From the NCBI RefSeq assembly GCF_018977255.1, contig NW_024704742.1:77440001-77504000 (forward strand): a stretch of 64,000 nt of DNA, given 5' to 3'. The DNA comes from Callorhinchus milii. Its lineage: Eukaryota. Positions within the stretch are counted from its first letter, which is position 1, and every line of letters begins with the position of its first letter. Positions 10,090 to 37,324 of the stretch are shown here, in pieces. The translations under genes were made by a program, and so were the position numbers. A model generated the notes under the pieces. The model was not told the origin of the DNA. It did not search any database and was given only the letters and a program-made list of their open reading frames with translations.

Positions 10090-10178
10090 CTGAGGATTTG
10101 TGACTGGACCATGAATCAAAACGGCAGGCATTTATACCCCAGTGCCAGTGACGATACTTTGGGAATTGCTTGGCAAAG
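10090..10178 (+). CDS. NFIB: NFIB alternative (cassette) coding exon, 89 nt, phase 0 in / phase 2 out
   Basis: Flanked by ttgacAG| (10088-89) and AAG|GTAACA (10179). Translates LRICDWTMNQNGRHLYPSASDDTLGIAWQ plus 'ag'. This closely matches my recollection of the long human NFIB isoform segment LRICDWTMNQNGRHLYPSTSEDTLGITWQ. The 'ag' joins in frame to the terminal exon (ag+t = Ser). Confidence 0.9.
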
Positions 10179-10890
10179 GTAACATTTTAAATATTTCTAA
10201 AATCTACACCTGCATATCAAAACAAAACCGTGAAGCTGCATTATCCCCTCTTGTTGTCCTGCATAAAGACGAATCACTTAAAACTGTCTGGCACAATCTG
10301 CTCAAATCTCGACTGTCAAATCTACTACCTCGACAATTCTTTCCTAACGTTTGTAGTGTGTAGTGGATTTAGAAATCTTCAACTCCTTGTATTTTCCCAC
10401 ATTGCCTGGGATAAACATGGCTGCCGCCCTCTTCAGAGAATTTAATGGAAAACATCTGTTCGGAGTTCTTTAGGGAGGCTGAAGTTATGTTCAAGGAGAG
10501 TTTTTGAACAGGGGAAATGTTTTAACTCTTTCACATCTGGAGGCTGGCTGCCTTCGTGCTTTTCTCAGTGGAACAGTCAAGGCTTTTCCGTCCTTGTGTC
10601 TTTGGCAATTTTTCTAAAAATTGTAAAGAACATGGTGATTTTCTTTTGCAGTAGTTTCACAGCGCACTGGAGCCGCAGCACAGCACACTGTGGAGCTGCG
10701 CACTTGTGGGATACAGGTTTGACCGCCTTTCCCTCCCCCTGTGTACCTCTGTCTCCTCCCTCCACTCTCTCCCCCCGCTGAGTTCCTGTTCTCAGGCATG
10801 CTGTTGTGTGGAGGTGGCGAGCAGAAGCCAGACCTTTCTCCGCAGGAAGGGAGGGCAGATCAGCTGGGAGTCTGCACTGGGCTGCTCCTC

Positions 10891-10905
10891 CTGGCAACTA
10901 GCCAA
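10891..10905. promoter_or_regulatory. NFI palindromic binding site CTGGC-AACTA-GCCAA
   Basis: Matches the established NFI dimer consensus YTGGC(N5)GCCAA. A second degenerate copy TTGGC-ACCAC-TCCAG lies at 10914-10928. Both sit in a GC-rich, repeat-free intronic block. Confidence 0.45.
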
Positions 10906-13900
10906 TTGTGGCATTGGCACCACTCCAGACACAGGTCATCCTCCCGCCTTCTTAGCTGCAGGAAGTACTTGGCTTGTGAAGGACAAGAAAAGCGAAAAAA
11001 CTGGGGAGAGTGGTGATGATGGTGGTGTTTGAAGTGGGGGAGAAAGAGAGGCAAACTTTTGTACCTTTTAAACAGGGCAAATTTCTTTTTTTAAAAGAAG
11101 TTGTTTTCTTTCGATGTGCATGAATGTGCTTTCAGAGGAGAGGAACAAGCTGAGGGTATTTCTAAATGCACTTACAAAACAAAGTGGATGATAAATGTGT
11201 CCAACACCACCGTGTGGAACCCAAATTAAAATTCCATGGAGAAAGTCATCTTTTAACAGTGTTGAAAACTGGACAAATGTTGACCAGCAAAATGGGATAC
11301 TGCAGCCTTAACAGTTACGGTTCTGATTTTTTTTAACAGAAGAATGATTACTTTTCATTAAGTTTGTGCAAAGTAAGTGACAGACCCTGGATAGCTGAGG
11401 TACCTCCTGGTGTCTTTTTAATGAAAATTATGTGAATATATCAAGCAACTTTATAGGCCATGTATGCCGTTAGTGAAATGGTAAACTCCATACTGTACCC
11501 ATTAATAACCAGTCAGGAGCTTTCCTGTCTTTCCCTTCAATATGTTAAAATCAAAGATACTTGAACAATTGTTATCTTTATCAATTTATAAATTGCGCAT
11601 TCAGCTGGTTCACAGTTTGCAAATGCCAGATTATATTTCAGTGTCTCTAGCAAGTTTTGTCCCCCCAAAAACTGGATTGAATTACAGGGGAAATTATGCC
11701 TATTGCACAAACTCAGGCTTTGCATATGTGTCATGTTTCAAGCTATGTTATACAAGGATAACACTTTACAGGGGCTTTTGAACAAGTCACAGTGCCTCAG
11801 CCAAGTCTATTACAGCGTATTGTACAAAGACGTGTGAGCTTTTATGTCTGTGTATAGTTTCTTTGTTTTATGATTTCACATTACTAACTCACTCATTGGC
11901 AGTTAATGCTTCTGGTTCGAGCAATGAGTGTTTGTGGTCAGTATGTGGGGCTTGGCGTTTTGTCCAGATGTGTGTTTCAGATGTATCAGTTCTGTATCCC
12001 ATAGAGGAGGGCCAGCTCTGGTTCCCATCCAATGTCTTGTCACTTTACATGTACGTGCAGGAAGCCTCATACAGTATTTATATCCATTTTTGTACAGTTT
12101 CTAAATTTATCACTGTCCAAGTGTGAAAGGACCTTCCAAATAATGGGTGATGGAAGGCAGGTCCAGACAAATGCAAAGGAAGTTCAGTACCCAACTGGTT
12201 AATCCCTTCACTTCAAGCATCTATACTCCAGTACTTCTCTCCCTTCTAAAAAAAATGTTTCTGTTGGACTATCCTGGAAAATGTACTGGGTCAGCACTTC
12301 CTGCCATAAGTTTATCTTACTGAAGTAACTTACATTCATCTTACAGTGAAGCAGCTGTTTAATGCTACACTCCTGGGGAGGATGTTTAACTCAGTATGTG
12401 AAGAGCTGGAAAGATTGCTCCAGCGTTCCCGAAATGAAGTTTCTTTTCAAAAAAACTACATAAAATGTCTTATTTCTTATGAATTTTCTCAGTTGGAATA
12501 GCTTTCCGGAAGGCCCTGCCTTGATATTATATAACGATGGGCAATAATTATTTAAAAAATCATTGGATACAGGGTGGAGAGGTAAAACTTTGCACATGAC
12601 AAGACTGTGTTTTATAGAAAGTGAGCTTTTGTTGAAACACAAGTTATGTCTGAGTAACTTCATTGGGGTTTAAAGAATAAAAGTGCATAGTCAATGTGTT
12701 TTTCCAAAATTCAAGGCTCTAAACTTTTGGTGATCTTAATTATAGTTTCTTGGAAACTCTTAGAAGCTCACACAGAAATGCACCCTGCCTGCCATGTATC
12801 ACAGGAAATGGGTCAACAATCTATTAAAAAGCCATTTGATAATCTAATTTAAGCCATAAATTAACCACACTGAGTACTTGAGGTGTGCTTGTGAGAAAAG
12901 GGTTATATGAATCGATGGGGAGTTGAGGCATGAAGAAGATTATTTGTTTCTCTCTAATCATGGTCACGTCGCAAGCTGTCTGGTAACCATGGGAAACCAG
13001 ACATGATGTAATTCCAGATTGAACTTGAACTTCAGGGACTTAAAAGGGGGAACAATAGACCATAGCAATCAATAAAGTCTATTTTCCACACGATTATGTT
13101 TGGTGCTTCGAGTTAACCTTTATGGGAATGGTAGATGTAGCAGCTACAGTGCAGAAAGATGATCCATTGACAAAATACTAAAGCAAAGAAACAACTTTGC
13201 ATTGACACTTTCTAGCAAATCCCAAGATTCGAGATGGATTAGAAAGTTTGCACTCTGCAGTAAGCCGTTTCACTGCTCTGTGGGCTCTTTGTTCCCTTAG
13301 GTAGGACAAACTTAATCTTTAGTTTCCTGTCAGATGACTTTGGCAGCGCCTGTATGGGGGGAGAGGAGAGGAGGAGCAGGCAGCACAACACAAAATACAG
13401 CTCCAACTCTGCCCAGTGCAGTGTGAAATAGTTTTAAGGTGGAACCGTTTTACCTGGTTGCAAACTTTTAAGTGGGACAGTCTTTCATTTGTACACTTTG
13501 GGTTGGATTCCAGATGGAAAAAAAGGAGTCCTAGTAGAATAGGATAGGTAAGATGCTGGTTTCATTGCACAATGATTTGGCAGTTCAGTTTCAGAGATAG
13601 CCAATGCCAGTTGTCAGTTAAATTAAGGGTGTCGCAACAGGGGACAAATTCATCCGTCTGGCTTGAAAGTAGCTGGCTCACCAAGTAACAGGATGCCGAC
13701 TGATATGAGTGATGAGAGTCTCGAAGAACTGTGTGGCCCCTTCACCCACTTATCTTGTCGGATGGAAAGATGGAGGGAAATGAGTGGCTGTGATAAGAGA
13801 AACAATTAGGAGGATGAATGGTACCAAATATAAAAATGCTGTGTTTAAAAAAAAGACAGAGCAATGCTATCTAGATTTCCCCTTGATTAAAAACCTCTGC

Positions 13901-14704
13901 AATGAACATAGCAACACTCCAGCCAGACACTGGAGAAGTTCAGAAATAGATGGGGCCATAAAGAATTACCTTAAATGTGTGATTGGCTGAGTTGAAATGG
14001 GAATGTTTGTATTTTCGGATTGTGGATGACATTGGACAGAAAGGATTTATTTTAAAATGTTCAAGCACTTGTATTCTGCACAAAAAAATGAGCATATCAT
14101 TGCTTTCATGTTACACAAATGGCACTTCAGATAGGAAAACACATCAGTCTCCACCACTGACATTAAAGCTGTGTTCTGGCATTCTTTAATGAATGAAAAT
14201 AGTTTCTTACATTCTTTAGCCCCATTCATTTTAGTGATGTTGTTGGTTCTTGGGTAGAGTTTTTTTTAAATACTTCCTTATAGCTGGTAGTTTCTGAGGA
14301 TGGCCTTGTAGATGTAGATTAAATTTATAACTGTAATTATGACTGTAATCCGACTGCAAGATTTAATTAGAAAATATGGTGACTTGGAAACCAGTTACTG
14401 TCAGCATTATGAAACTTATTGGCATTTGGAGACGTAAATGGATTAGTAGCTGCGGAATCCTAGATGTGTGGCTGACCATTACTTCACAGAAGAGGAACAC
14501 AAACAGAGTCCGTAGCGTTCCAGAGAGTCGGCCACGCAGGATAGGTTAATCTAACATGTAGATGTAAAATGGGTCGTCTCTTCAATAGTGCAGTAAGGCA
14601 GCCTTTCATACCATTCCTTTAGTAAGAAAACACCAAGTCCTGTTATCCTCTTAGGGTGCAGGTCATGATGTGTTGGAAAAAACATAGCAAACAGCATAAC
14701 CAAG

Positions 14705-15060
14705 GCTCCCTACCAACCTGCCCGCTCCCTCCATTCATCGGGCTCCGGTCTGCTCCATGTCTCCCACCCGACACGCCCTACCATCGGTGGCCGGGCTTTC
14801 AGCCTCTCTGCCCCCACACTCTGGAACTCCATCCCACGGGCCCTTTGCTTCGCTTCTTCCCTTACCTCCTTCAAGGTCAGTCTCAAGACCATTCTCTTCG
14901 ACCGTGCCTTTGGTCTCCCTCCCACCTCTCTGCCTTCCCTCACCCCTACACCACCCCTCCCCCGTGCTCGGGCCCAGACATCTGACTGGTCAGCGCTTTG
15001 GGACGTCCACCCGATGTGAAAGGCGCTCTATAAATGTAATTTTGGTGTTGTTGTTGTTGT
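14705..15060 (+). mobile_element. L2 3' fragment
   Basis: Colinear with 30595-30964 of the young L2 (CCTACCATCGGTGG, CTCTGGAACTCCATCCC, TTG tail). Confidence 0.88.
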
Positions 15061-15184
15061 AAAGTGTTGATACAATGTAGTTATGAATTGTGTTCAACAC
15101 CTATGCTGTATGTTTAAACAAAATTAAAATGAATGCTCTTCTTAAGGGTGGATTAAAGCAACATCCAATGTGGTTTTAAATCTT

Positions 15185-15440
15185 AGTTTGTGCTGATTTA
15201 GCTGATCTAGGCACGGCATCAGTCCAGACGTTACATTTGGAGGTTCAAGGGGTAAATCAGCTTGGGTCCTGCTCCTGACTGCTGCTCAGTGACCTCAGCT
15301 GGAAAGTGCAGATGTGTTCGGTGATGACATAGTAGTTTTAATGCCCCTTCATGTGTTTGCCTAGACAACTCTCACTTTCTAGGCTCACACATGAAGAAGT
15401 GCTGATTATTTTAAGTATGGGAAGGTATGCAGGAGGGACT
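15185..15440 (+). mobile_element. Ancient SINE, AmnSINE2-like
   Basis: TTAGCTGATCT, CCTGCTCCTGA, CAGTGACCTCAGCTGGAAAG and CTAGGCTCACACATGAAGAA match my recollection of the AmnSINE2 consensus. Related reverse-strand copies at about 7540-7780, 15920-16090, 40065-40440 and 52035-52265. Confidence 0.55.
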
Positions 15441-18184
15441 TCAAGGTCCTCACCTATAAATCCCTTCATGCCCTATCTCTGTGATCCTTTCCTATTCCAC
15501 TCTTCCACTCAGCAAACTCGAGCTTGCTGAGGTCCCCGTCACTCCTGCTTTTTGATGCCACTTGCAGTTAACTAGCTTGCCATGACTCCCTGTCAAGGTT
15601 AACACGTGAATAGTGGTCACATGGGCACAGGCCCTTTGCTATCTGTTCTGTTTTCTTTTTAGCTACACTCCAGCACCATGCTAATGTCCCACAAATTAAA
15701 TGGTCTTCTGCAAGTCAATGAGTCTTGACACCAATTTCCAGAGAGGACTGACTGCCTTGTTTCAAGGGGAGATACAATACAGCTGGATGAGCTGTGGACA
15801 TTTCTGTCTTTTGCCCAACAGCATGTCCATTGATTGTGTATGTTAATAATAATGCTTTATAATATATTGCTACATACTAATAATATATGCATTATTCATG
15901 ACACCGAGTGACTCTTCAACCTCAGATGGCATCAAAGCTGAGCCTGATCTTCCTCTCGGCCCAAGACCACTACATGTAGGGATCAGAAGCGAAAACCTTG
16001 GCTGATATTCCCCACCATAACTTTTCAGTAGTAGAACCAACTGTAGCCCCAAATATCATTTTAGTTGAGATCAGCTAACTCTTCACTGGCCAAAAACGTA
16101 CGTAGATATACATAGACTGTGTAATGCAGAAACAGACCACTCGGCCCAAACCAGTCAATGCTGGTGTTTATACTCCACATGAGTCTCCACCCACTTCTTA
16201 CTCACTCCCATATCCTATTTCCTTCCTGATGTGAAAGTCTAGCTTCCTTTTAAATGCATCCATTCTGTCTAATTCAAACATTGCTTCGAGCAGATTCTCA
16301 CCACCCTCTGGGTGGCCAAGTTCCTTTTCAATTCTCTTTTAAATCCCCTTTCTTAATACTTGTGTCTCCCCTATCTTATAATTGTGTGGACTCCCCAGCA
16401 AGTGGGAACAGCCAATTTACGATATAGAATTCAAGAAGTGAATTTTGAACCTTAACAATCTGCATCTCTCAACTACTCATTTGAAGAAATGCAAGCTAAA
16501 ATTCCTCCAGTTTATCCAATATTTCTTTCACTCGCTTCTCAAGTGACAGTGGAATTTGATGTAAAATGAACCAATTTTCACAGCTATTTTCCCTTATCTC
16601 AGATTTTGTGAGCAAGAGAGAGCCACAGGAAAGTTGTAAGCAACCAACAGTCCCAACAATTTTCTCCCTGAAACCTAACCACAACTCAGTGGATAGATGT
16701 ATCACTTCAGTACTTCCCTCATCGGTTAATAATCACAGTGCTCCCTTCAACTTGCTTTCTCGTTGGTGCTTCTGATGTCATTTGATGCGTCTCTCAGTCC
16801 GCCATCAAACTTAGTTGACTGGGCACTTGGCCCACTGCTGCACAACTCTGAGCGTGTCTGTCTCCAACTCCTGATTAAATGCATATTTGCTGAAAGATGC
16901 TATCAAAGCATAGCCTTAACTGAAAACAAGGGCCTTTTCAAAGTTGCAATTGTACACTTTAAATGGCTTCGATTTTCTTGGAAAGGAATCTTGGAACTGT
17001 AAGATAATAGTCGATGGAGTCCAGCTCTCAGTGTATTCACCTTGAGGTGGCTGAAAATTTTAGGGGAAAAAAATGAAGAGCCTTCATCTTAACGCAGTGT
17101 CATTTTCCCACCTGTAGCACATGATCCAAGCTGTCAGCATAGCTTCCAGTGTCTGGGAGAATGTTCAGATCATGTAATGGTTGATGTGCACCTTTCCCAA
17201 TCCTGAGTGGAGAACTGCTCAAGTCATTTAAGAAACAGCTCGACTCTGGTGGGAAAATGGTAGGAAGGAAGAGACCAAATGAACTGAAGGGGTGATCTAA
17301 ATACCTCTTTTGTAAATTTTTGATCAGGAGAAATTGGGCTACTGTGATTAATCAAAATTTCGAAGGCATTCAATCACTGTCTGAAAGAGGAAAGTGGATT
17401 TGACCTAATAGATTTCCATCATTTCTGTTTTAGCTTCAGTTTCCTGGGTCTGCTGTTTGGGTTTCACTCTTATCCATTGAGAATGCTGCAGGAAGGTAGC
17501 AGGGATTATAGTGGTTGGTTCACTGGCCCTAAGACATGAGGAAGACTTTTCTGAACTTCCTCCGCAATCTGCTTGTGTTTAGTTGGCTTTATTTAGTAGG
17601 TGGTGGTGGATGGGGGGGAGAGAGTAAGAAAGCTTGATACATGGGGTTGTCTGGCAGTAGTGCCAGCCTGCTGCCAGTTTGCTCACATTTGCTGATGCTG
17701 CAGGATATTAATGGAGGTTTATTGTGGAGCAGAAACAGTCAATGTAAATCATGTTTCCAAATTGACTCTCGCAAGTCTGCAGGGCATTATGAGAAGCAAA
17801 AGGCAGGAAATAAACACTTTAGTCTTACTTTGTAGTTTTGTCATTTTTGATCTGCTCACAAATTAAATTTTAATTAATGTGTTGAGCTCAATAAAGTCAA
17901 GCCTTTTAGTCAAGTGAGATATTGCAAATAATTAGTGCGGATTATTCCTTGATCTGCCACTTAATTTCATCGTTCGATTTGTGAATCAAAATAGAGATTT
18001 ATGAAAGCGGCCACTTAATGCAAAGTTCAACACTGGTCAGGAGGTGGGACAGGAACAGGGTAGAGGGTAGGATTTGGGTCTGTGGGGTGGGGTCTCTTTT
18101 CTTCCTTGTGATCAAAATTAATTTGATGTCCTAAATCAGAAGGCAAGTGTTATGGATTTATTTTAATGGTAATCGTTTGCTTTG

Positions 18185-18457
18185 TGGCTTCATCTCTTTG
18201 CAAGCGAGAGACCTGGGTTCGATTCCCGGCAGGGCGAAACCTTGGGCAAGTTTCCTCAAGAAAAAAAAAGAATAATTTGGTCACTTCAATCCACGACTAT
18301 TTGTGGGACATTGCTATGCGCAATTGGCTGCCGCAAATTGTATATTTGCCAAAAATATAGAATCAATTCACTTTTACAGTATATTCTGTGAAGCGCTTTG
18401 AGACATCTACAAGACATGAAAAACACTATATCAAATGCAAGGATTATTATTATTATT
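18185..18457 (+). mobile_element. tRNA-Ala/Deu SINE with damaged head
   Basis: TTTGCAAGCGAGAGACCTGGGTTCGATTCCCGG, then core and GCAAGG(ATT)n tail. Confidence 0.85.
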
Positions 18458-19317
18458 AATTGAGTGCAATGAATGCACTAAATATAACAGCCAAATGTGT
18501 GACCGATGGGAACTTCAATATGACCTGATTGGGTTTGTGCATGAGGACTCTGCAATAGGGAGCAGAGAAATATTAAGCAGAATAGTGCATGTCTGTGCCC
18601 ACAGCTCCCCTCCCTATATCAGCTGAGATGAGTGTTGGTTGAGGGTGGCATAATGAATGAAAAATAAGTGTTTATCCCACAATAAAGGAAAGAGACCGCA
18701 ATGCTGCACCCATTCATCACTAGATGCCCCATAAGAGATTGAAAGTAGAATAAAATTCACATCATTAAAGACAATAATCCCTGAGTTTGATACAGCGCCT
18801 TGCACATTGGGAGGACGGCTCAAAGCGCTTCACAGGATTTACTGTGTAAGTGACTCCGTATTTTGTAGCTAGAGATCAGTAAGATTTAGAAATCCGTGAG
18901 ATAGATCTTGGTGAGCAACACAAAAATATTACACAAAAATACTGAATAACCTCAGAAGCTAAGATTGAATCAATAAAGGAGAATATTCCCATATCTATCT
19001 TACTTAATGTGATTATTTATTCTCACTTTAATAGAAATCCCCCCCAAAACTAATAAATCCTCAAAGGATAGAAACAGAAACTGTTCTTAATGAAAACAAT
19101 TCTATAAAAGTTTTGTGTTTAATGTGTATTTTATGTACGTTTCATTTCTCCATTGTACTATAGTGAATATTAATCATTTAACTGTGTTAGTGGTGTTTCG
19201 CCCCTTGAGTACAGATTTTTTATCTCGCAATTTCTTGCTCTCCGAGCTGCTCAGCTATCCCCCACCCTCCCTCCTTCAGCCAGGAAAGTGAACCTGTGTG
19301 TGTAACAGGCTGCGCAA

Positions 19318-19640
19318 ACAACAACAAAATTACATTCATGTAGCACCTTTCAACAACAACAACTTGTATTTATATAGTGCCCTCCTCACACAGTAACGGA
19401 TCCCGGGACTGAGCCAGGGGGAGGGTGAGGGGGAGGGAGGTGACCAAAGGCCTGGACGAAAAGAAAAGTCTTCAGCAAAGACTTGAATATAGGAAGGGAG
19501 GGAGCGAGGCGAAGGGAGTGAGGAAGGCAGTTCCAGAGCCTCGGGGCATAGTGGCTGAAGGCACAGCTGCCGAGGATAGAGCAGAGTGGACTTTCACGTC
19601 GGGAGGACGTCTCAAGGCGCTGGACAATCAGTGTTTCGGT
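19318..19640 (-). mobile_element. L2 tail with a second L2 3' fragment nested inside
   Basis: Two (CAA)n tails; the inner element 19353-19590 is flanked by CTTTCA at 19347-52 and 19591-96. Confidence 0.8.
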
Positions 19641-22600
19641 GGTTCTCAATGTAACCCCACACTAGGCCAGCAGGAGGTGTAGCTCAAAATGCAGCAAGTC
19701 AGACAAATTTCTTCTGTGAGATGCAACACTGCAAATGAGACCCCTTTTTTTGCCCAGCACTCTAATGGTGACTTGTAAAATGAAGAAAAGTTAGGAAGCC
19801 AGCAATCATCTTACATCAATAGTATTGCGCACACAAAGCAGTTTCACTTTTCAACAGGTTTGTTCCGTGTATATCGCTGCAGTAGTCCTAAGATTGAAGT
19901 AGTAGATTTTCATTTCAAGAGGAGATACGATGCCAAAAAAGGGAATACAGACATTTGATGCTGCTTTTCATTACAAGGTGGCTTTAGAGGCAGGCTTGAC
20001 TCTGTAAGCAAACTTGTAAAGTGAAAGCGTTATCTGCACATATATTCACTGATAATGTTCACAAATAGCTACATATCCAGTTCCTTTTTTGAAGGCTTTA
20101 TACATCCAGTATTATATTACAGTGGTACTCCATTATGACACAGACTCACTTGTAAGTCTGGTGGCCAGCTTCCTTGTGCTGTGCTTGCGCAGGTTGCTGC
20201 ACAAACTAATTTACTTCCGTGGGTAGGTTTGGTTAAGCCAGTGGCTTTCCTCGTGTATGTAAAGTGCAAAATAAGTGCACATTGTCTGTGACCTGATCAC
20301 CCAGAATTCAGCAATTATTTTCGTGTGAGAAGTGAGCTTGCTTTCTGAGTGCAAGTACAATGATGGTGATCAGTGTTACGATATGGAAGTGCTGATCAGC
20401 AGTTGCCTCCCATAATAGGTAGATGGGAATTTCATGGGCCCCACACTACTGCATTATGATGAGGCTGAACTGTATCATTGCCCAAAATGCATTAGCTGAA
20501 GTCTGCTTGGATCATCATCATTTCACCACACCCTTCATCTTTTCCACTTTCAAAACTATGAATCTCAACATTCAAAGAGCCGAAAGCCATAAATTAGCTG
20601 GTAGCTTTTGGCACTTGTGTCATGTATATTTGGATTGGTGCCCAATATAGATGCAAACCACAAGAAAGCATATGACATATAGTCTCAGACATCTGTAAGA
20701 GGAAGCTCCCTAACCTGTTTTTTTAATTAATGCACTTGATACAGAATCTTTCACGTCAGGAGGATATTTCAAAGGAGCTTCACAGAACTTACTGTAAACT
20801 GTAGTGATGGCGCGTTTTTGTAGGCAAGTGTCCTGTGTCAGGATTGGTTCACTTGTAAATTTTGGATTTAGTTCAGACTGTATACAGACAGAGAGGATAC
20901 AACAACAACTTGCATTTATATAGAGCCCTTCAAGCAGGGTAGCGTCCCAGAGGACATCCATAGTGCTGATTGGATGACTCCCATTGCTGCACTGCTCATT
21001 GAAGGAACCACGTATAGTCCTCTATGTTAAGAGTTGCTCTGCCATTTTCATGTGACACACACTTTTGATCAGTTGTGGTTCTGTTCCTAACACGGTCCTG
21101 AATAAGTTCTGAAAAGGCTTGTAATAGCCAAGGCAGCATTGCCCTGCCTCTCCTCAAACTCATTAACAACAACAAAATTACATTTGTGCAGCACTTTCCT
21201 GATTGAAGCATTGTTGGCTGCTAATATTTCACAGGTTACCAGAATTAAAAAGGTGCTTTTTGAGGGGAAAATAAACTTCCTACTTTGCTAATCTAGTGGA
21301 GAGCAGAGAACAATTACCGTTTAATCCTTAACCTAATTGAGGGAACACCCAATTGCGAGCAATATATTTAATTATATATATGTATTTTGAAAAAGAATTC
21401 TTATTCCACATAATGTTTGTAAGATGATATTCTTGAGAGCTTATGGGAGTAATTTACTGTTCGGATGCTTTAAAAGGCAAAGGCAGATTTCATGTGGAAA
21501 TGTGTGTTGTTTCTCTTTATCTACTTGATTATAGTCTTCGCAGGGAGAAAAAGTAATATTATACAGGGCTGCCTTATAGTTTGTGTGGATTATTCAATTC
21601 ACATCTAAATTGTAATTATACCATCCGTCCCAATCCACCAACACAGCCTCAATTACCAATTAGCAGCAATACTTGGCAAACAGTAAGAGCCTTTTAAAAG
21701 TGGAAATTCCGGCTTGGTTTGTGCCTCCTTTTATAAACGTTTCCTTTGCTTTTACTTTAAAATATTGGCAACGAGACATCAAAATCACCATTGAATTTAC
21801 ATAAAATCAATTAGAGGTGACAGTTGATCTTCACTCTGTCACTGTCTTGTGATTTTGTCCACTGAGTTAAGATTAAGGTGGCCGATGTGTCCAGAAATAA
21901 TTGTACTTGTTGGTTTGTGTTCTCAGCTCGTGAATGATTAGCCCAAACCACTTGCTGCTAAACAGAGTTCTGAATGCAGTGTATCTGCTTCCCAGTCCCT
22001 GGAACCATTTGGTTTTTTTAATCTTTCTTCACTCGTCAGTGCTAGACCCACAAAAGAATCTCTAGAGACCTTCCAGGGCATGCTGATTTTCTAAGATAAT
22101 TACAATATAATCCTTGCAATTGATATAGTGCCTTTCAAGTCAGGAGGACATCTCAAAACACTTCACAGGGTTTTACTCTCTGAAGTGTCATATTTGCAGG
22201 CATAGGTGTATTTTAAGCTTTCAAACTCTATACTTTTCCCTTATGCTGGTGGAAACTGGTGGTACACAAAAGAGAGGTCTTCGTAAAACTGAGATCCTTT
22301 TTTTTAAATCTTATTGGCACTGGAAGATTATTTTGACAGTAGAACAAGTAAAATGCTTTGAATATCTGGAAAACCTCGGAGAACTTTATAAAAATTGTGG
22401 TATAGCATGGTTATGACTGTAGACAATAGATAACTTGAGTTCAAAGTCTGCAACAGTTTGGAATGGAAAAAAAACTGCACAGTGATTTTCCAGAAGGGAG
22501 GCATTTGTCGTGTTTTTCAATTGACGTCGACTGTATCAATATTTGAAATGTTTCTCTATTGACATTCACATCACTGAAGAATAAGGCTACCCGACCGTAT

Positions 22601-23203
22601 GCAATTAATGGAAGAGATCAAGGGAATATTTTGAAATACTTCCCTTCTATTAACTTCTTATTCAGTTCTTAGTATTCAAACCTTTAAATTGTGCTGTGCA
22701 GATATTTCTAAACGTTCCGGATGTATTGGCAGCTCAGTGGTGCAGTAGATGATGAATACATTTGATGGATCTCAGAGAGTCGGAACAAGGGCAAGTTCTG
22801 AGTCTTGCCCAGTGAGATATGGAATAGGCACTTTCTTACAAAGATAGGGGGGGAAATGCACAGAGACACCCTTCTCCCCCCAATCCCCCAGCCAATCTCT
22901 ACTGTCCCACTGACAATGAACCACAGAACACCTCTAGCAAAGATCCAGGAGCAAAACTGCTACAAGTAAACATGGGCAGGAAAATAACGTGTGAAATGTA
23001 AGAACCAGGAATGTGAATTCAGGATATCAGTAGAATATTCTTTCATATTAATTATAACATGATCATTTTCAGTCCATGTAAGGACTGCAGCACCTTGAGA
23101 TATCTGTGAAAGGCACTATATAACTGCTGTTGGTGGGAGTGTTATAATCAAATAGAATCGTTAGAAGGGTTCAGATTGGGATCTATCTCACTTTTATATT
23201 TGT

Positions 23204-23503
23204 GGAGTCCTGTAGCTCAGTGGTTAGAGCACTTGCTTTGCAAGTGAGAGACCTGGGTTCCATTCCCGGCAGAGTGAAACCTTGGGCAAGTTTCCTTTCT
23301 CCATACGCCTGATAATAATCCCTCAAAAAAATAATAAATTGGTAATTTCAATCCACGACTGTTTGTGGGACACTGCTGTGCACAATTGGCTGCCACATTT
23401 CGCCCACAAATATACAGTCAATTCACTATACAGTCTATTCTGTTAAGCACTTTGAGACATCTAGAAGATGTGAAAAGTGCTAAATCAAATTTAAGGATTA
23501 TTA
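23204..23503 (+). mobile_element. tRNA-Ala/Deu SINE, more diverged full-length copy
   Basis: GGAGTCCTGTAGCTCAGTGGTTAGAGC head, Deu-like core and ATT tail. Confidence 0.9.
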
Positions 23504-26500: not shown

Positions 26501-27099
26501 ATCTGTCGCCCTCCCACAGTGGAGCCCCCAAACAGCCTCGGGTGCTTCAAAGCTGCAACTCTGCATTTTCCTTGCAAACTGGTTCAGACCGGGTTCAAAT
26601 GAAAGCACTGCTGGCTTGTCCACGGCAGCCACACCACCACTTAGCCATCCAGCCCACAGAGCAGCACCCTTAGATTCCTGCTGTTGGTGCTGGAGCTGAG
26701 ATAAAGGAGCTTCTCTGGAGAAGGCTTTAACCACGTAATGGGAAGACACGTTCGCCCACTAAACACACAGTTGCTACACTTTACAGTGAATCCCATGAAG
26801 CATTTTGAGACATCCTGATAATATGGGGCGCCGTATCAAATGCAAGGATTATTATTGTTCTGATTTAATGTCGGGCAGGACACAAGCTAAAATTGGGACT
26901 AAACAATTATATAACAGTGAAGATGGCTATTCTGGGAGGATGAGATCAAATGGTTTCAAAGGGTTTTCTTCATCTATATCTCTCTCTCGTAATCTGCTGA
27001 GACACATTGCTATTGTGCTTGACCTTGAAGGGGAGGACACTTTGAAGCACCTCAAGATAATTGGGACGCAGAAAGGGCACTGTCTGCTGAAATTAATGA

Positions 27100-27768
27100 C
27101 CATCAAACCCATGACCCGCTCCGCCTTTCCCCACCTCTGCAACATTGCTTGAATATGCCACTGTCTCACACCACAGGCCACCAAGACCCTCATACACCCA
27201 TTCATAACATCCAGATTTGACTACGCAAACTGCTTGTTGGCCTCCCCTACTCCTCCCTCCATAGACTGCAGATCATCCAAAACTCTGCAGCCCGTGTTCT
27301 CTCCCATACCCTATCACTCTCATCCTTGCCCAACTCCACTGGCTTCCCATCACACAGAGAATACAGTTCAAGATCCTAGTCCTCACTTTCAAAGCCCTCC
27401 ATGGCCTTGCTCCTTCCTATCTCTGCAACCTCCTAACCCCCTACCAACCTGCCCTCTGCTTCTGCTCAGTGGGCTCTGGCCTGCTTCATGTCCCCCACTT
27501 TGCCTGCCCTACCATTGACGGGCAGGCCTTCAGCCACTCCGCTCCCACCCTCTGGAACTCCAACCTGCAGTTCCTCCATCATGCCCCCTCCCTTGCCTCC
27601 TTCAAGACCCATCTCAAGACCCTCTTCTTTAATTGTGCCTTTGATCACCCTCCTTCCCTCCACCCTGCCCTCCACCCTCCCAGATCCTGACCCCCAGCTC
27701 AGGTCCGAAACACTGATTGTCCGGCGCCTTGGGACATCTTCCCAACGTGAAAGCCGCTATACATGTTA
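27100..27768 (+). mobile_element. Diverged L2 3' fragment
   Basis: Degenerate SRFDYAN, FKILVLTFKALHGLAP and AFSHSAPTLWNS motifs plus an L2 tail. Confidence 0.85.
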
Positions 27769-28447
27769 CGATGATTTGTGGGGCAAGAGGATCATTATCA
27801 ATCCTGCCTGTCATGTTGCACGCACGTAAAGGGAGAACAATTGGTAACGTCCTCACACCTAAGTGTTTATAAATTTCTCCCCACAATTTTTTTTAAACAG
27901 AATCTCACAGTGTGAGAGATTTTACCCATATTGTCTATATTGGCAGAGCTGATTGTCACATACTGACTGGTGATACATAGGAATGCTTAAATAGAGAAGA
28001 CATTGAGTCAGGAGTAGGGAGACTATTCTGAAGAAATTCATGTGCAAAACAATTTTAGTGCTCATTGATTTGGTGCTTATCTCCACACCAAACTCAGATT
28101 CCACATGGTTTTCACTACAGTTCTCACCAGGCTCTACTGCCTCCCTATGGATGAATTTTAAAGTCCTTACCCTCACCTATAAATCCCTTCATGCCCCAGA
28201 AACTCCCTGTCTCCATGTTTTTCTCAAAGAAGGGAATTTCTCCCAGTGTTCTAGCCAACAAATCCCCCCAGATAAAATTGTTTATTCATTCATGGCTGTT
28301 TGTAGGACATTGTTGTCCGCCAATTGGCTGCCAGATTTTTGCCACAAATCCACAGTCAAGACACTTCATAGAAAAATCTTGTGAAGTGCTTTAAGTCATC
28401 TCAACCGCGTGATAAAGTCTTACATAAAATACAGGGATATTGCAATA

Positions 28448-30964
28448 TCGATACTCTTGCCCCCATCACTTCCCGCACTGTCTCCTACTCCCTCTCCTCC
28501 CCCTGGTACACCACCCACCTCCGCTCACTGAAAAGCCAGGTGCGGGCTGCTGAACGCACCTGTGTCAAATCTGGCCTAACGGTCCACCGACAAATCTGGC
28601 TGGACCTCCTCAAAATTTACCGCTCCACTCTAGCCTCGGCCAAGTCGTCCTTCTACTCCAAGACAATAATAATAATAATAATAATAATCCTTGCATTTGA
28701 TATAGCGCTTTTCACGTCGGGAGGACGTCCCAAAGCGCTTCACAGAATAGACTGTAAAGTGAATTGACTGTATATTTGTGGGCGAACGCGGCAGCCAATT
28801 GCGCACAGCAATGTCCCACAAACAGTCGTAGATTGAAAATGACCAATTTATTATTGTTTTTTTTTTTTTTTTGGAGGGATTATTATTAGGCGTGTGGAGT
28901 AAGGAAACTTGCCCAAGGTTTCGCCCTGACCTGCCTGGAATTGAACTCAGGTCTCTCACTTGCAAAGCGAGTGCTCTAACCACTGAGCTACAGGACTCAA
29001 GATAATCTTGGAGGCGAAGAACAACCCCAGGCTACTGTTTTCCACCACAACCCGACTCCTCCGTCCCCCCCGCCACCCCGCGCAGGTCATCTCCTCCAAC
29101 CTTCACTGCGAGGAGATGCTGGATTTCCTTGAATCCAAGATCAAGGGAATTCGCTCCGCGGTCACTTCCCCTCCAACATCCACCAACCCCCCACCCCCTC
29201 ACTCCCACACTCCGACTGCTACCCATCCTCCCCTACTCACTTTTGTACCCGTTTCCCCACCCTCTGTCACCAAACTCATCCTATCCCTGAAACCAACCAC
29301 CTGCTCCCTTGACCCCATCCCCACTCCACTCCTTATCTCCCAGCTCCACTTTCTTGCCCCACATATCACCGACATCGTCAACCTGTCCCTCTCCTCTGGC
29401 TCTGTCCCCATTCCCTTAAAAACTGCCACCATCACGCCCAACCTGAAAAAACCCTCCCTTGATGCGTCGCAGCTATCAAGCTACCGGCCCATCTCCAACC
29501 TCCCCTTTCTCTCCAAGGTCCTGGAAAGAGTTGTCGCCTCCCAACTGCGCTCTTTCCTTTCCACCCATTCACTTTTCGAACCCCTTCAGTCAGGTTTCCG
29601 TGCTGCCCATAGCACAGAAACTGCCCTGGTCAAGGTCACCAATGATATCCTGACCATCTGTGACCAGGGCTCCCTCTGCCTCCTCGTCCTCCTCGACCTA
29701 TCGGCAGCATTCGATACGGTCGACCACGCTATCCTACTCCACCGCTTGTCCTCCCACCTCAACCTTCAAGGCACTGTCCTTGAGTGGTTTAGGTCGTACC
29801 TTTCTCACCGTCTTCACTTTGTCTCCACAAATGGCTTCTCCTCCACCCCCCGCACTGTCTCATGTGGTGTCCCTCAGGGCTCTGTCCTCGGTCCCCTCCT
29901 CTTCACCCTCTATATGCTCCCCCTTGGTGACATCATCCGCAGACATGGAGTTAACTTCCACATGTATGCGGATGACACCCAACTCTACCTTTCCTCCTCT
30001 ACTCTCAACTCCACGACCACCGATGTCCTGACAGCTGCCTGTCCGACATCGAGTCCTGGACGAGAGACAACTTTCTTCAGCTCAACGTGCGAAAAACCGA
30101 GGCCCTCCTGATTGGCTCACGTCAGCGCCTCCGCACCTCAGGCGCCGACACCATCAGCATCCAAGGCTGCACTCTCCACCTCTCAAAGCCAGTCAGGAAC
30201 CTCGGCGTTTTGTTCGACCCTGAGCTGTCCTTTCTCCCTCACATCCGCACCACAACTGGCACCGCCTTCCATCACCTCCGGAACATCGCCAGACTACGGC
30301 ATTACCTCACCCCTCACGCTGCTGAAACCCTGGTCCACGCCTTTGTCACCTCAAGGCTGGACTATGGGAACTCTCTCCTCGCCGGCCTTCCCGCCACCTC
30401 CCTCCACAAGCTGCAGGTCATTCAGAACTCTGCAGCTCGTGTACTGTCCCGCACCAGGCTTCGCGACCACATCACTCCCACCCTCGCTCGCCTCCACTGG
30501 CTCCCCATCCCCCAGAGGATTGATTTCAAGATCCTCATCCTCACCTACAAGGCCATTCACGGCCTTGCTCCCTCCTACCTCTCTGACCTACTATCCCCCT
30601 ACCTACCTGCCCGTACCCTCCGTTCCTCTGGCTCCGGTCTGCTCCACGTCCCCCGCCCCAATCGCCCTACCATCGGTGGTCGGGCCTTCAGCCTCTCAGC
30701 CCCAGGCTCTGGAACTCCATCCCCCAGTGCCTTCGCCGCCTCCTCCCTCTCCTCCTTCAAGGCCGGTCTCAAAACCTTTCTCTTTGACCGTGCCTTCAGC
30801 TCCCCTCTCGACTCTCTTCCCCCTCCTCGCTCCCTCCCTTCCCTCCCCTCACCCTGACCATTTCCCCCCTGCTCGGGTCCTGACCCAACTGTGCAGCGCC
30901 TTGGGACGTCCTCCTGACGTGAAAGGCGCTTTATAAATGGAATCTTGTTGTTGTTGTTGTTGTT
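28448..30964 (+). mobile_element. Young 5'-truncated L2-clade LINE (ORF2 reverse transcriptase, disabled), interrupted by a SINE
   Basis: RT motifs [46 protein letters not shown] and YADD (29965-29976), plus L2-type C-terminal motifs SRLDYGNSLL and LHWLPI. Ends in GGGACGTCCTCCTGACGTGAAAGGCGCTTTATAAATG...(TTG)n. Apparent 1-nt frameshifts near 30032 and 30700. No endonuclease domain is visible. Confidence 0.95.
28668..28997 (-). mobile_element. Young tRNA-Ala-derived Deu-domain SINE inserted in the L2 ORF
   Basis: Reverse complement reads GAGTCCTGTAGCTCAGTGG (A box), GTTCAATTC (B box), Deu-like core GTTTGTGGGACATTGCTGTGCGCAATTGGCTGCCGCG, an L2-like tail and (TTA)n. Target-site duplication caagacaat (28659-67) / caagataat (28998-29006). 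Confidence 0.93.
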
Positions 30965-32170
30965 GCAAGGATAACTATCATTATATTCTCTGGCCCACTC
31001 CTTTGCTTGCCCCTTCCACTCCACCATCAGTGGCCAAGCTTTCAGTAGCTGTGCTCCCATTCTTTGGAACCTCCTCAGTGCCCTCTCCTCTCTATCTATC
31101 TTTAACTCCTCTTTGACGAAGTCTATGGTACCTCCAACTACCGCCTCCCCCTGCCCCCAGCAACACTGTTTCACTGAAGCACACTGAAGCACCCTTCTAT
31201 GTGAAGGGTGTTATATAAATGCAAGTTGTTGTTATTTCATCACCTCACCAACACTCCCCTACAAGCGTAATGGACATGTAGGTTTAGTTGATGTTAGGTT
31301 TATGTTATTTTCAGTAAGGCATTCAAAAACAGACAATTTTTAGCCATTTCAAAACACAAAAGTTTTAGCTTTCTATATGAACAATAGCCAAGTGGTTGAA
31401 CCACAAACTAATTTTCCCCATAGGGAGGTGAGAACAGCCAGCATGCAGTCAGCCATTCCCAGTAGATTAAAACTTCAATTATTCAAACCACATTCACAAT
31501 ATTTCTGTTTAGTAGTGGCCATTTACTGTTAACCCATAGAGATTATGTGGTGTGCCCTTAATGTGGGTAATGTGCTTCTCGTAGTTTGATCTTGAAAAGC
31601 TGTCCCTGAAGTTGACATCATTTTATTTAAAATGAGCACCGTCTCCTTTGGTGTCGTTAGTTTTGTGTAATCTGACTCTCCAGACCTCTTTTGCTCCCTT
31701 TTGCGGATTAGGTCAGTAAGGATACGTTCTTTTTGTGCAGAAATTGAGGTTGAGACATTTTAATGTCTGCTTTTACAGAATAAGAGAAAATAATAATTCT
31801 CACCAACAAAAATATTCCTTTGTGTTGTAGTAGTAAGTACCACCTAGAAATAATCTCTTGGTTCCCAATATATTCTTATATTAATAATATTATATTAATA
31901 AAATATTAGGAGTTTCAAGCAATGATTCAGAAATCGAACTGCATTTCATTGCGATAGACAATGATGTATTGATCAGATTATTTTCTTTTTAAGAATCATA
32001 TCATTGCACCATTGTTTGGGGAATGATGTTTCACTATCCTTTGTTTCCTTTCTCCCTTACTTTTCTTTTCTCTCCTTCCCTCTCTGACCCTCATGCAACA
32101 TTCTGTTCAACTTTTCTTAGTCAAATTTTCTTGGTCAAATCAAAGCAGTCCACGACAAACCAATATGAGT

Positions 32171-32487
32171 GTAGAAATTCCACCCAGGTCTAGATTTATG
32201 CCATTAACATAACAATATTTGTTTCGCCCACAAATGTAGTCAATTCACTTTACAGTATATTGTGTGAAGTGCTTTGAGACATCTAGAAGATGTGAAAAGC
32301 GCTATGCCAAATGCAAGAACATCCAGAATTTGGCAAATTCTTAATACAACCTTAACTTTGAATCCTGTTAAGAACTGCAGAAAAACAACTTCAAAGTTAA
32401 GACTGAATTCAAAAATTTGACAATTTCTACATGTGCCAAAATGCTACATTAATAGAGTAACTTAAGACCAGGTGGAATTTTACCCCA
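32171..32487. mobile_element. Palindromic MITE-like element interrupted by a SINE 3' half (about 32215-32318)
   Basis: GAAATTCCACCCAGGTCTAGATTTA at the left end and AGACCAGGTGGAATTTT at the right end. A related copy lies at about 35895-36118. Confidence 0.55.
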
Positions 32488-34529
32488 ATAGTTTTTTTTT
32501 GTATTTTTTTTAAAAAACGTTTCCACTTTCTTAAGTTTGATTGTTGAGTAGTGACTGGCCAAAAGTCATCGTTATACAGATCGAAAGTGTCATGAACACT
32601 ACCATAGAGGATTTCATTCTCTGCCAAGACATTTCATTTCAAGAATCTCACAAAGTACATTTTGTTCAGAAAGAATTGTTTGAAAAAAAATTCTCTAATT
32701 GAAAGAGGGAATACTCTAGAACCTTTATGTTAAATAAATACAGTTCCCTATTTAGCATCACTGTTATTACTTCTAAAAATCATAGAATATTACAGCACAG
32801 AAGGTGGCCATTTGGCCCATCGTGCCAGTTCCAGCTCTTTGGAAGAGCTACCCAATCAGTCCCACGCCCCCACTCTTTCCCCATGCCTTTTCAAATTTTT
32901 CCTTTTCAAGTACCTATCTAATTCCCTTTTGAAAGTTGTTATTGAGAATATATATATTCTTAAACATTCCCACAAAATCTTGCATCTCAAATATAATCTG
33001 TGCATTTAATTTAAATGATAGTTGGGTTGGTATTTACAAAGATGGGGCTTCAGTTGGGCATGAGAGTAGATAGACTGCTAAACACAAATCTAATATTACA
33101 GTTTTCTCTGTTTCAGAACCATACAAATTTACAGCAAAGAATGCCATTCAGCCCATTCTGTCTGTGTTTGATCTTAGGAGTGATCCATTCAGTTCCATTT
33201 ACCCTACTTTTCTCAACACCCCTGCAAATGACTCCTTTGTATAATAATAATAATCCTTGCAATTGATATAGCTCCTTATCACAGGATTTAATGTAAAGTG
33301 GAGTGACTGTGTTTTGTGAAAGAAATGCAGCAGCTAGTTACAGCATTGACCCACAAACAGCCATGGAGTGAATGAACAATTTTATTTCGGCGATTTTGTT
33401 GGCCAGATTAAGTCCATTCTCATTTTGAATAAGGATCTTCAACATCCACCCGTCACTCACTACAAGCAGTTGCATAGCAGAATAATACCGCTCTGTTACC
33501 TTTGGAATGGTGAAATTCCCCCATCGCTGCCATGATTCCCTGTGGCCTGTGACTTGTCTCAGCAGTTACCCTTCTGCTTTGAACAAGTGGTCGATATCTG
33601 ATGCCAGTTAGTAGTTTGTTGCCCTTATCATTAACTAATTCTTACTTTGATTACTTCTTTCAATCTGCACTCTCTCAACCGGTTTCGCAATGTCCTTTAC
33701 CAAAGTGCCATTCCTCTTCCATTTTACAAGATCTGTCTCCACAAAACATTTTATGCCCAATCAGTTTAAGTATTTGTCAAATTCTGTTTATGTTTCTGTG
33801 ATGTCAGCAATGTAAATATTTTCCCAGACTATGTAGACTTTTATTCACCTACAAAATACACAGTCCTACACTCTACAATAAATCTCATGAAGCACTTTGA
33901 GACATTTTGATACATGCTATATCAAATGCAAAGATTATTATTGATATTATAATTTATTGCTAAAAATCTTTGCATTAGTACAAAAACACTGTTTCTCACT
34001 TCATGGTTGTTTGTGGGGCATTGCTATCCGTAAATTAGTTGCCTCATTCACCTAAAAAATTATAGTCACTACCATTCACAGTAAAACCTTGTGAAGCGTT
34101 TTGAAACGTCTCAATGACGTGATAAGGCTCTATATCAAATGCAAGGATTATTATTTTTTATCAACACATCACCTTGAACAGATTTTCATTCTTTTTCTTA
34201 ACTTTGAACAACTGCCTCTTGAATACCATTAAGTTTTCCAGAATATTTATTTGTCTCCCCCAAATCTATTTTGAAGTAATCTCAATTAGTGTTCCAGTTT
34301 TGATCCCTACCTGGTTATATGTTGACCACCCTTCACTTAGTGACGATTACCACAGGCCTGACTTTGCCACCTGTGTCTTCTTGGAGCCAGTTCAACTGAG
34401 CTATCCAATGAGCTGCATTGACATGGTAGACAATTGAGCAATTTAGCTAAAAGGAACCACTAAGGATTGATTGATCGATCGATCTAGTTAGAAGGAACCA
34501 TTTTGAGGATGTTGAACCCCAACTTGATA

Positions 34530-35305
34530 TTGGGAAACTATGTGATGTAGTGCATCTCAACTTCCAAAAGACCTTCGAATAAACTCCTTTAGGTATGAAG
34601 AGTAAGGCAAGGATGTAGATCAGTAAAGATGGCTAAAGTGAAGGAATGGATCCCATAAATGGCCTGAATTTGCAGACTCAGTACAGGATAGTTGAAAGAG
34701 ACCAAAGTGCATGAGTTGATTCATTGCTCATATGAGTATGAGAGGAACAATAAACATAACAAGCAAAGCAAAAGGGATGCCAAAGTAGTTTAGTTCAAAT
34801 TCCCAGAAGTTGTTTTTTAAGATGTGCACATTTCTTGCCCATCCATCTCTTATTAATCCATGACCCAGAGACAGTGCAGAGGAGACCAATGAGGCTGATC
34901 CCCTATGGGATGAGAAATAAGATCCCCAGCCTTGAAAATGACATTTCGAAAGGGACTTGATGGAAACGTATAAAATACTGTTTAATCTAATTCAGAAAGA
35001 TATACAGCATGCTAAACGGGATAGAAAAAAATACTTTCAGATATGTGTGCCCATCTTGTAGGACACAAAGACACATAACTTCAGGTTATGAATAGCAATT
35101 AAGAACAAACACCAAGACATAGTTCTCAGTGCAGAATGTAATGAACAGCTGGAAAGGGTTACCAGGACAGTAAGAGAGGCCGGATCACTGAGTTCATTTT
35201 AGTAACAGCTGATTGGTATAATCGGAAAGCAATCGGGTGGGTTCACTGGAAGGAAAAGATGAAATAGGCCACAGGGCCTTCTTCATCTAAACCCCTGTTG
35301 TGATC
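34530..35305 (+). mobile_element. Highly degenerate CR1-type LINE fragments
   Basis: GATGTAGTGCATCTCAACTTCCAAAAGACCTTCG resembles DVVYLDFQKAFD, and AGGGACTTGATGGAAACGTATAAAATA resembles GDLIETYKI. Ends in a GGGCCTTCTTCATC-type tail. Confidence 0.55.
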
Positions 35306-36467
35306 TTATCCTGAGGAGCTAATGTTTAAGCTCTTTTGCCCACACCTGCTTTGAGTTTTTATAAACACCAGCTGTGGTTTATCCCATTGAAATGAATAGA
35401 AACTGGAAATTGACAGTGAGAAATGGGTATTGTTGTCTGGAGCGATTGTGCCCAACCTATTAATAATTGCAGAGCATTCTGCAAAGAGGAGTAGCAGCAA
35501 TAATGTATGCATGTACATGCACATATGTGAGAAATCATGTGCGATTATCTCAACACAACTTAAACAAAACTGTTAATGTTTTCTGCAATAGACTGAACAA
35601 GTCCAATTTAACATTGAGGTTGCTATCCAGTGAGATCTACCAGTTAAATTTTCTCTACAAGTGCACGTGTCCAATATTGTGATGCATAATAAACATTGAA
35701 AATCAAGATTTCCTTTGTACACATACCAAAGTAAATTAGAACACTAAACTTGGCAGCATCAAAACACGAGGAGTTTCAGAGGAGAGCGTGCTGAGCAGCA
35801 TGGGCTATCATCTACCAGACTTCGGGGTCTAAGATATGATATTTGTAGGCTAAATTTGTTACATTAATTGTAAATTAGAGGAAGGACACTTTTATGTATC
35901 TAGATTTATTGTTTTTCTTAGCTTTTCTTTGCATTTCAGAGCACCCAGAATTTGGCAATTTCTTAAACAGCGTTAATTTTCAAGTTGTTTTTCAATAAGT
36001 CACTTCCATGAACTACAGAAAACTGGCCTCAGAGGCTGAATTCAACAATTTGCCAAATTCTGCACCCTCTAAAATGTGACATAAATTGAGTAAATCTAGA
36101 CCCAGGTGGAATTTCTCCTCCGTAGTTTGGAGTATTAACCTACAAAATTTGCTGCTTGCAATTTCAAAGTCATCAAACTTTGAGAAAAGAGTGGTGAGCA
36201 AAAGACTGGCCATTTCTCACAGACCTTTTGGCTGACTTTGCCAGCTTGTCCAACCGTGAATTTCTCAAACCGGAAATCACATTTAACCAAACCATCAAAT
36301 CTGGTTTGTAAATATTGCCTTGTAACCTCCTTTGTTTAGAATTAAATTTCAAGAGCATAGGTTTGTCAAAAAAGATGTGGATTACAGATGCACAACACTA
36401 TTAATCTCATTTCCATTTATTCAGGCGAACGTCAGCTAATGTTAAGTGTTAAATTCTAATTTGTGTC

Positions 36468-36850
36468 AAGCCTGGTTCAGTCTTTAGCACACTCACCTCT
36501 GAGCCATAAGGTTTGGATTCATGTTCCGTATTGGGGACTTTGAGTTCATAGTCCAGTCTGCACTTTAGTTAATGCTTGGGACATGATGCATTTGCTATCC
36601 TTTGATGAGATGTTAAACCCATGACACTGTTCAAAATGAGGAGGGAGTTTACCGGTTAACAACCCTCCAGATAAAACTGATCAGTGAGTTCTTGGTTGCT
36701 TGTGGGACATTGCTGAGCAACAAATTGGCTGCTGCATTTGCCTGTGTATTGCACAATCACTGCATTTAACAGTAATTGCAGTACAATGAAGCACTTCAAG
36801 GTATTCCAGTGTGATGAGGCGCTATATTAAATGCTGTGATTAGCATTATA
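36468..36850 (+). mobile_element. Older Deu-domain SINE, about 350 bp upstream of the NFIB terminal exon
   Basis: Head CTCACCTCTGAGCCATAAGG, GATGAGATGTTAAACC, core TTGTGGGACATTGCTG...AATTGGCTGCTGC, tail GAGGCGCTATATTAAATGC. Confidence 0.7.
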
Positions 36851-37194
36851 ACTTAAAATAATCAAACTTATTTACTTCATTGCCTTAGCTCAAGTTCAAG
36901 TAAATAGCTGTGTCTAGGGAAAGATACTGGGCAGAATTCCATCCCCCTGCCTATTCATAGATTCGTAGAAATTTACAGCGCTGAAGGAGACCTTTTGGCC
37001 CATTGAATCTCAAGCTACCCATTCAATTCATAGCAAATGGGATGAAATTCCACTCAGAATTTGTAATACTATTTTATCGTGAGTTGGCTACATAAACTGA
37101 ACGCACATCACTGGAGTAAAACCTAATGGATTTAATCTGTTATCCAGAAGAAAGCTGACCACATTGATTTATTTGTGTTTTTCTTTCTCCACAG

Positions 37195-37212
37195 TCCTGG
37201 TACCTGGGCTAG
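37195..37212 (+). CDS. NFIB: NFIB terminal exon, canonical frame: SWYLG*
   Basis: Strong acceptor tttgtgtttttctttctccacAG| (AG at 37193-94) with a branch-point-like CTGAC at 37155-59. TCC TGG TAC CTG GGC TAG gives SWYLG*, the known C-terminus of NFIA/NFIB. Confidence 0.92.
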   Translation, partial: SWYLG

Positions 37213-37324
37213 CCTGGTCCCATTCCAAGTGTCAAATGGGACGACCATCCTGCCAACGAATGTCCAGAATTACAGTTTAAACTTCATCGGTGAACCCTTC
37301 CTGCAAGCGGAAACGACAAACTGA
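37195..37324 (+). CDS. NFIB: NFIB terminal exon, alternative frame used after a phase-2 exon: (S)PGTWASLVPFQVSNGTTILPTNVQNYSLNFIGEPFLQAETTN*
   Basis: Open frame from 37196 to TGA at 37322-37324 (42 codons). Matches my recollection of the human long NFIB isoform end SPGTWASLVPFQVSNRTPILPANVQNYGLNIIGEPFLQAETSN, which favours NFIB over NFIA. Confidence 0.88.

Follow-up and report, generated by a model that had tools for sequence, protein, structure and literature searches.

How can a single terminal exon give the same protein two different C-termini, and is the longer of the two kept by selection as a protein? The question is raised by the last two exons of NFIB in the chimaera Callorhinchus milii, which lie in a stretch of 64,000 nucleotides (nt) of the assembly GCF_018977255.1 (contig NW_024704742.1, positions 77,440,001 to 77,504,000 of the forward strand; this whole stretch is referred to as the window, and positions are given in its coordinates). 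An 89-nt cassette exon precedes a terminal exon that is read in two frames: one reading ends after the five residues SWYLG, the other completes an ending of 72 residues, the tail. The best explanation, which we hold with considerable confidence, is a splice-controlled switch of the C-terminus of NFIB, with a conserved 72-residue ending.

Two endings from one exon

The exon that precedes the cassette (86 nt, G000:C1:77438452-77438537, about 1.46 kb before the start of the window) ends in phase 0, therefore skipping of the cassette gives SWYLG followed by a stop, while its inclusion gives the tail. When this upstream exon is spliced directly to position 37195, the protein ends in SWYLG, the pentapeptide that is found family-wide. 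When the cassette is included, the ribosome enters the terminal exon one base further on and produces the long ending, made of 29 cassette residues, a serine at the junction and 42 residues from the terminal exon. The cassette is preceded by AG and followed by GTAAC, and it is open in frame 0 over 29 codons plus 2 nt, the other two frames being closed. The acceptor of the terminal exon (37193-37194) follows a pyrimidine tract, with CAG before 37195, and the frame-0 stop is the TAG at 37210-37212. The same bases, 37195-37212, are read in two frames by the two splice forms; this overlap is only 18 nt long, and from 37213 on the bases that code for the tail are 3' untranslated region (UTR) in the skip isoform.

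Stop-free windows of 89 nt between AG and GT are common by chance (26 of the 112 in positions 1-37194), therefore the evidence for the cassette is its homology, not its openness. The 42-residue frame retrieved 234 proteins. Among the 120 that are listed, the top one is isoform X3 of C. milii NFIB (P0001, 100% identity). Next come sharks and rays with 93-98%, ray-finned fish with 81-90% and tetrapods with 86-88%, human isoform 9 among them (the human tail is 86% identical across the terminal 42 residues). Every paralogue label among these 120 is NFIB or B-type, the remaining proteins being unnamed, hypothetical or called 'Nuclear factor 1'. P0001 contains the Pfam domains PF10524, PF03165 and PF00859. 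A tblastn comparison places it at two sites of the window only, 10090-10178 (residues 489-518) and the terminal exon, both at 100% identity (E 2.9e-15 and 2.2e-21), with no other match below E 1 within the 64 kb; its exons occur in order on G000:C1 at 77.31-77.48 Mb, and the final two are the two exons of the window. A published primer for human exon 11 aligns at position 10134 with 2 mismatches, the next-best site having 6, which identifies the cassette as the orthologue of human NFIB 'exon 11'. Judged by these matches, the locus is the 3' end of NFIB in a cartilaginous fish.

Both endings are annotated. The C. milii NFIB cluster has 17 members; among the 15 listed, which are predicted models, the tail is the ending of 10 and SWYLG that of 4, the remaining one having another. 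In RefSeq, the tail is carried by XP_007890184.1/85.1/88.1 in C. milii and by NP_001356391.1 and NP_001356398.1 in human, and SWYLG by XP_042188292.1 and NP_001177667.1, respectively. In a C. milii UniRef model (P0134), the upstream exon is followed by yet another annotated NFIB ending; a search of the three plus-strand frames of the window does not find its last residues.

A preliminary description of this DNA had placed SWYLG and its stop in one frame of the terminal exon and a 42-codon open tail in the other, had taken the 89-nt (3n+2) exon for the frameshifter, and had proposed that the gene is NFIB, that the host may be a cartilaginous fish and that the isoform is probably annotated in mammals. 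The coordinates and the frame logic hold, and the database matches bear out the identifications.

Conservation of the long ending

Selection on the tail was evaluated in a single pair, the window and one recovered orthologous DNA (L069), over codons 7-42 of the terminal-exon part. The mismatches at codon positions 1, 2 and 3 number 5, 1 and 20; the proportions of synonymous and nonsynonymous differences are pS 0.78 and pN 0.073 (Fisher p=3.6e-12). Up to the TGA the alignment has no indel, and just after it there are many. This pattern indicates that the +1 tail is under selection at the protein level, which is what the preliminary description had put forward. In the same pair, the 18 overlapping bases show 0/18 mismatches, and none of the 5 degenerate codons of the overlap is changed vs 18 of 31 beyond it (p=0.045), which points to purifying selection in either frame. 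An independent estimate, inferred from a pair of turtle proteins (two species) whose frames differ, gives 3 changed residues vs 9-12 synonymous changes.

The platypus protein is identical at 27/29 positions of the cassette and 38/43 of the tail, vs 172/226 in the mid region and 58/76; the corresponding counts are 27/29, 37/43, 162/226 and 58/76 in frog, and the carp cassette reaches only 16/29, some of the counts in these three species being depressed by differences between isoforms. On the whole, the cassette and tail are better conserved at the protein level than the recognised C-terminal region of NFIB.

The 120 listed matches also keep the architecture. The cassette is 29 residues long in 93 of them, 28 in 3 and 26 in 6 (18 were not parsed), and the same frame is rejoined; the final residue is the same in 109, the other 11 being gene calls on contigs in which the TGA is read as Trp. 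Across 31 distinct tails, 30 of the 72 columns are invariant. Since the long ending is common to chondrichthyans, ray-finned fish and tetrapods, these alignments date its sequence, length and stop to the jawed-vertebrate ancestor, the age that had been suggested for the switch.

Transcripts

Four C. milii runs from two studies (of 20 listed, their kind being guessed as RNA) were compared on positions 36700-39700. The skip junction is present in 4/4: at the acceptor, each run has a loose end that agrees in sequence with the upstream exon. The runs are not on record as RNA, but they contain a spliced junction and therefore transcripts. The RNA-like contigs show no joint within 37193-39700, in agreement with the earlier claim that the last exon contains both stops. 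Because of the position of the stops, both mRNAs would escape nonsense-mediated decay (NMD), and the cassette would switch the ends of the protein rather than its dose. The features of a poison cassette acting through NMD are absent: the cassette is stop-free in frame, the stop comes 130 nt into the terminal exon and no joint is seen up to 39700.

The succession of upstream exon, cassette and tail occurs without intron in contig-called proteins of other vertebrates (P0052, P0067, P0070, P0184, P0187 and P0189), and a human MYB-NFIB fusion protein (P0106) ends in cassette and tail. In runs X1 and X2, the start of the main contig, at 37193, lies one base beyond that of the skip contigs; this break in the graph implies a second predecessor that does not end in CAG, which is a hint only, the cassette and an upstream phase-1 exon both ending in AAG. 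Inclusion is visible directly in contigs from other vertebrates and in human fusion cDNA, and indirectly in C. milii, where the skip form is the one observed. The switch appears to be real, and it is conserved from sharks to humans.

The contigs of the 3' UTR differ from the window by single bases and one inserted T (38026, 38641, 38772, 39281, 39295); these are probably alleles or assembly differences.

Paralogues and possible function of the tail

Only three NFI DNA-binding-domain exons are found in the assembly (C1, C5 and C21); a fourth paralogue may be absent from it, may have been lost or may have escaped the search. From their resemblance, we take the genes on C5 and C21 to be NFIA and NFIC. 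An annotated isoform of human NFIA ends in the +2 frame. All three genes have kept SWYLG and its stop, and their penultimate exons are all of 3n+2 length (86, 86 and 92 nt). The cassette and the tail have no second significant match in the C. milii genome, and the +1 frame closes after 6 codons on C21. Cassette and +1 tail appear to be specific to NFIB, either gained after the split of the NFI paralogues or lost in the others.

Three candidate relationships are not supported when the scores are compared with shuffles. On C5, the +1 frame is open for 69 codons past SWYLG, and 598 of 5000 shuffles reach its score as a homologue of the tail. The best candidates for a cassette homologue in the last introns of the two paralogues (about 18 kb) are equalled by 24/40 and 11/40 shuffles. 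If the cassette is taken for a tandem copy of the 86-nt exon that precedes it, the local score is reached in 246 of 2000 shuffles.

The tail is rich in Thr, Asn, Ser and Leu, and contains three Trp and no Lys; Arg occurs just twice in the shark tail. It may act as a mostly unstructured docking segment, whose invariant aromatic and hydrophobic blocks and fixed C-terminal residue would bind co-regulators; inclusion of the cassette would then alter the activation or repression output, or the turnover, of NFIB dimers, DNA binding being unchanged. Taken by itself, this mechanism seems to us slightly better placed than an even bet. An AlphaFold2 model of P0001 (38 sequences) has a mean predicted local distance difference test score (pLDDT) of 34 and is low even in the DNA-binding domain, so that it is uninformative on disorder. 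The best scores of the tail in the ESM Atlas (0.85-0.89) are all with CTF_NFI clusters and are leads only. A HMMER search of 1.84 billion representatives gives 24 matches at E<=0.001, the two weakest of which are chance matches to repeats, and no homologue was recognised in it beyond NFIB-like sequences. We propose, tentatively and at a little less than even odds, that the tail is an interaction module of NFIB only, with a partner of its own, which was recruited after the vertebrate NFI duplications by conversion of 3' UTR to coding sequence; the cassette would be a regulated output switch, and the module would ride in some MYB-NFIB oncoproteins.

The tail may also be made and conserved while its role is negative: inclusion would mainly remove SWYLG or add a turnover signal, and the product would be a weaker or dominant-dampening form of NFIB, still able to dimerise and to bind DNA. 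SWYLG is retained in all three NFI genes and hence likely matters, and a dominant-negative action has been described for late NFIX frameshifts that evade NMD (PMC10241085). A plain stop would however suffice to remove SWYLG, and the invariant columns, together with the strong third-position bias, argue for residue-specific contacts. We consider this negative role rather unlikely, at about one chance in four.

Several observations weigh against a conserved, functional switch. In the 36700-39700 stretch of the four C. milii runs, the inclusion junction 10178^37195 was not seen, all 4 loose ends at the acceptor having the skip form, and the contigs of runs X5 and X6 pass through the skip junction without a branch. 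Synonymous sites are saturated in the pair formed by the window and L069, hence no reliable value of omega (the ratio dN/dS of nonsynonymous to synonymous rates) can be given. The matches were chosen by their similarity to the tail, so that species that have lost it cannot show up among them. The tail has no match in Pfam or in the PDB that would speak for disorder or for a partner. Last, the specificity for NFIB is judged from one genome, from the two paralogues found there and from short, insensitive queries.

A third frame and an RNA element

It may be asked whether the terminal exon is triple coding, the 86-nt upstream exon being skipped as well, so that a +2 frame common to the paralogues would be translated and selected. 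In each of the three NFI genes this frame stays open, over 27 codons in NFIB, where the window, P0167, P0166 and L069 have the same stop, over 24 in the terminal exon on C5 (L059, minus strand) and over 35 in the other paralogue; the penultimate exons have the required 3n+2 length in each. On the other side, the +1 frame has no deficit of synonymous changes where it runs over the +2 open reading frame (11/19 vs 7/12 beyond, p=1), and pN in the +2 frame (0.26) exceeds pS (0.12). The +1 protein alone gives a chance of 0.56 that the +2 frame is open and of 0.67 that it has that stop, so that its openness is largely due to the +1 protein sequence; +2-frame searches, of low sensitivity, returned one unannotated match and none. 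We regard triple coding as very unlikely, and rejected it, no constraint being detected on the +2 frame in NFIB. The terminal exon thus has two coding frames, a third not being demonstrable, and the +2 frame is probably a by-product. Neither this frame (37197-37280, 27 codons) nor the 18-nt limit of the coding overlap had been stated in the preliminary description.

That 37213-37324 would be conserved as an RNA element of the 3' UTR, the cassette being rarely used and the long protein incidental, is largely refuted and hardly credible, since, although the skip junction is the only one seen (4/4 runs), 20 of the 26 differences fall at third codon positions and 1 at a second, indel-free conservation ends at the TGA, and a scan with Rfam finds no family there.

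Layout of the locus

The features of the locus are collected in Table 1.

Table 1. Exons, intron and reading frames at the 3' end of NFIB in the window
Feature	Position	Strand	Remarks
NFIB cassette exon	10090-10178	+	89 nt (3n+2), AG/GT; phase 0 in, phase 2 out; tail residues 1-29
Last NFIB intron	10179-37194	+	27,016 nt, GT..AG; LINE and tRNA-derived SINE-like repeats (long and short interspersed nuclear elements)
First bases of terminal exon, read as SWYLG* in frame 0 (skip isoform)	37195-37212	+	18 nt, sole truly dual-coding stretch
Frame +1 of terminal exon (inclusion isoform)	37196-37324	+	42 codons and TGA at 37322-37324
Frame +2 of terminal exon	37197-37280	+	27 open codons; a single annotation (turtle NFIB model P0166)
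3' UTR common to both isoforms	37325-39700	+	RNA-like contigs without joints up to the edge of the 36700-39700 stretch

In the region of the cassette acceptor (10025-10065) the pyrimidine tract is weak, a branch-point-like CTCAC lies at -25 and a single TGCATG (RBFOX-type) at -65, features that would be compatible with a regulated, mostly skipped exon. No further NFIB coding exon was detected in the last intron. Within this intron, at 28987-30857 (+), a LINE reverse-transcriptase region (RVT_1, E 2e-31) is fairly intact and occupies two open frames, one after the other; related fragments lie near 14669, 27265 and 44714. The Rfam scan returned only four tRNA-like matches, all tRNA-Ala-like (23206-23277 (+), 28926-28997 (-), 47957-48028 (+) and 54021-54092 (+)); they have a long downstream sequence in common, which marks them not as tRNA genes but as the heads of SINEs of one tRNA-derived family.

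Significance and comparison with known systems

Between chimaera and human, a segment of 72 residues has been conserved better than the adjoining activation region, in a gene with a central role in the development of brain and lung and in several cancers. Which ending is carried by a cDNA construct or by a fusion may matter for the interpretation of experiments on NFIB, and if the tail is an interaction module, it could matter in a subset of MYB-NFIB oncoproteins.

One paper on NFI-B2 reportedly states in its title that the C-terminal domain of NFI-B2 transactivates. A full-text literature search found no functional study of the tail, older subscription papers (Grunder 2003, NFI-B2) being outside its reach. 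The roles of the splice forms of NFIB are called an open question in reviews (PMC5552107, PMC13637464).

Dual coding itself is well described. A study lists 1296 human genes with dual-coding regions (PMC13160074), and the 8 files of its supplement do not contain NFIB, NFIA or O00712. In a preprint, NFIA, NFIB, NFIC and NFIX are named as one of the families whose dual-coding regions are ancient; its outgroups include the elephant shark, and 90 of its 537 dual-coding regions are preserved across jawed vertebrates (bioRxiv 10.64898/2026.05.28.727796). That preprint treats its NFI regions as older than the duplication, whereas here the +1 tail and the cassette were found in NFIB only; the frame that is open in all three NFI genes is here the +2 frame, and the frame pair that the preprint lists for NFIB would be specified in its supplement.

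The same exons are used in the MYB-NFIB fusions of adenoid cystic carcinoma, whose exon-11 variants carry the cassette, but there they are brought together with MYB by a human tumour rearrangement. The last exon of NFIB alone adds SWYLG (PMC7910556). Transcripts that join MYB exon 15 to NFIB exon 11 were confirmed by Sanger sequencing and are the predominant fusion form, with 30-43% of the MYB transcript in three tumours (PMC6626627). The effect of the fusion is usually ascribed to the loss of the 3' part of MYB, not to the NFIB tail (PMC9103462).

The novelty that the preliminary description implied does not stand: both isoforms are annotated in C. milii and in human, the cassette is the human 'exon 11', and the NFI family is named in the 2026 preprint. 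Both endings of NFIB are already known, and the switch, itself annotated, belongs to a kind that is both known and common. The annotated NFIB isoforms of C. milii in RefSeq are indeed the identical object, with the same two exons and both endings, and do not differ from what is described here.

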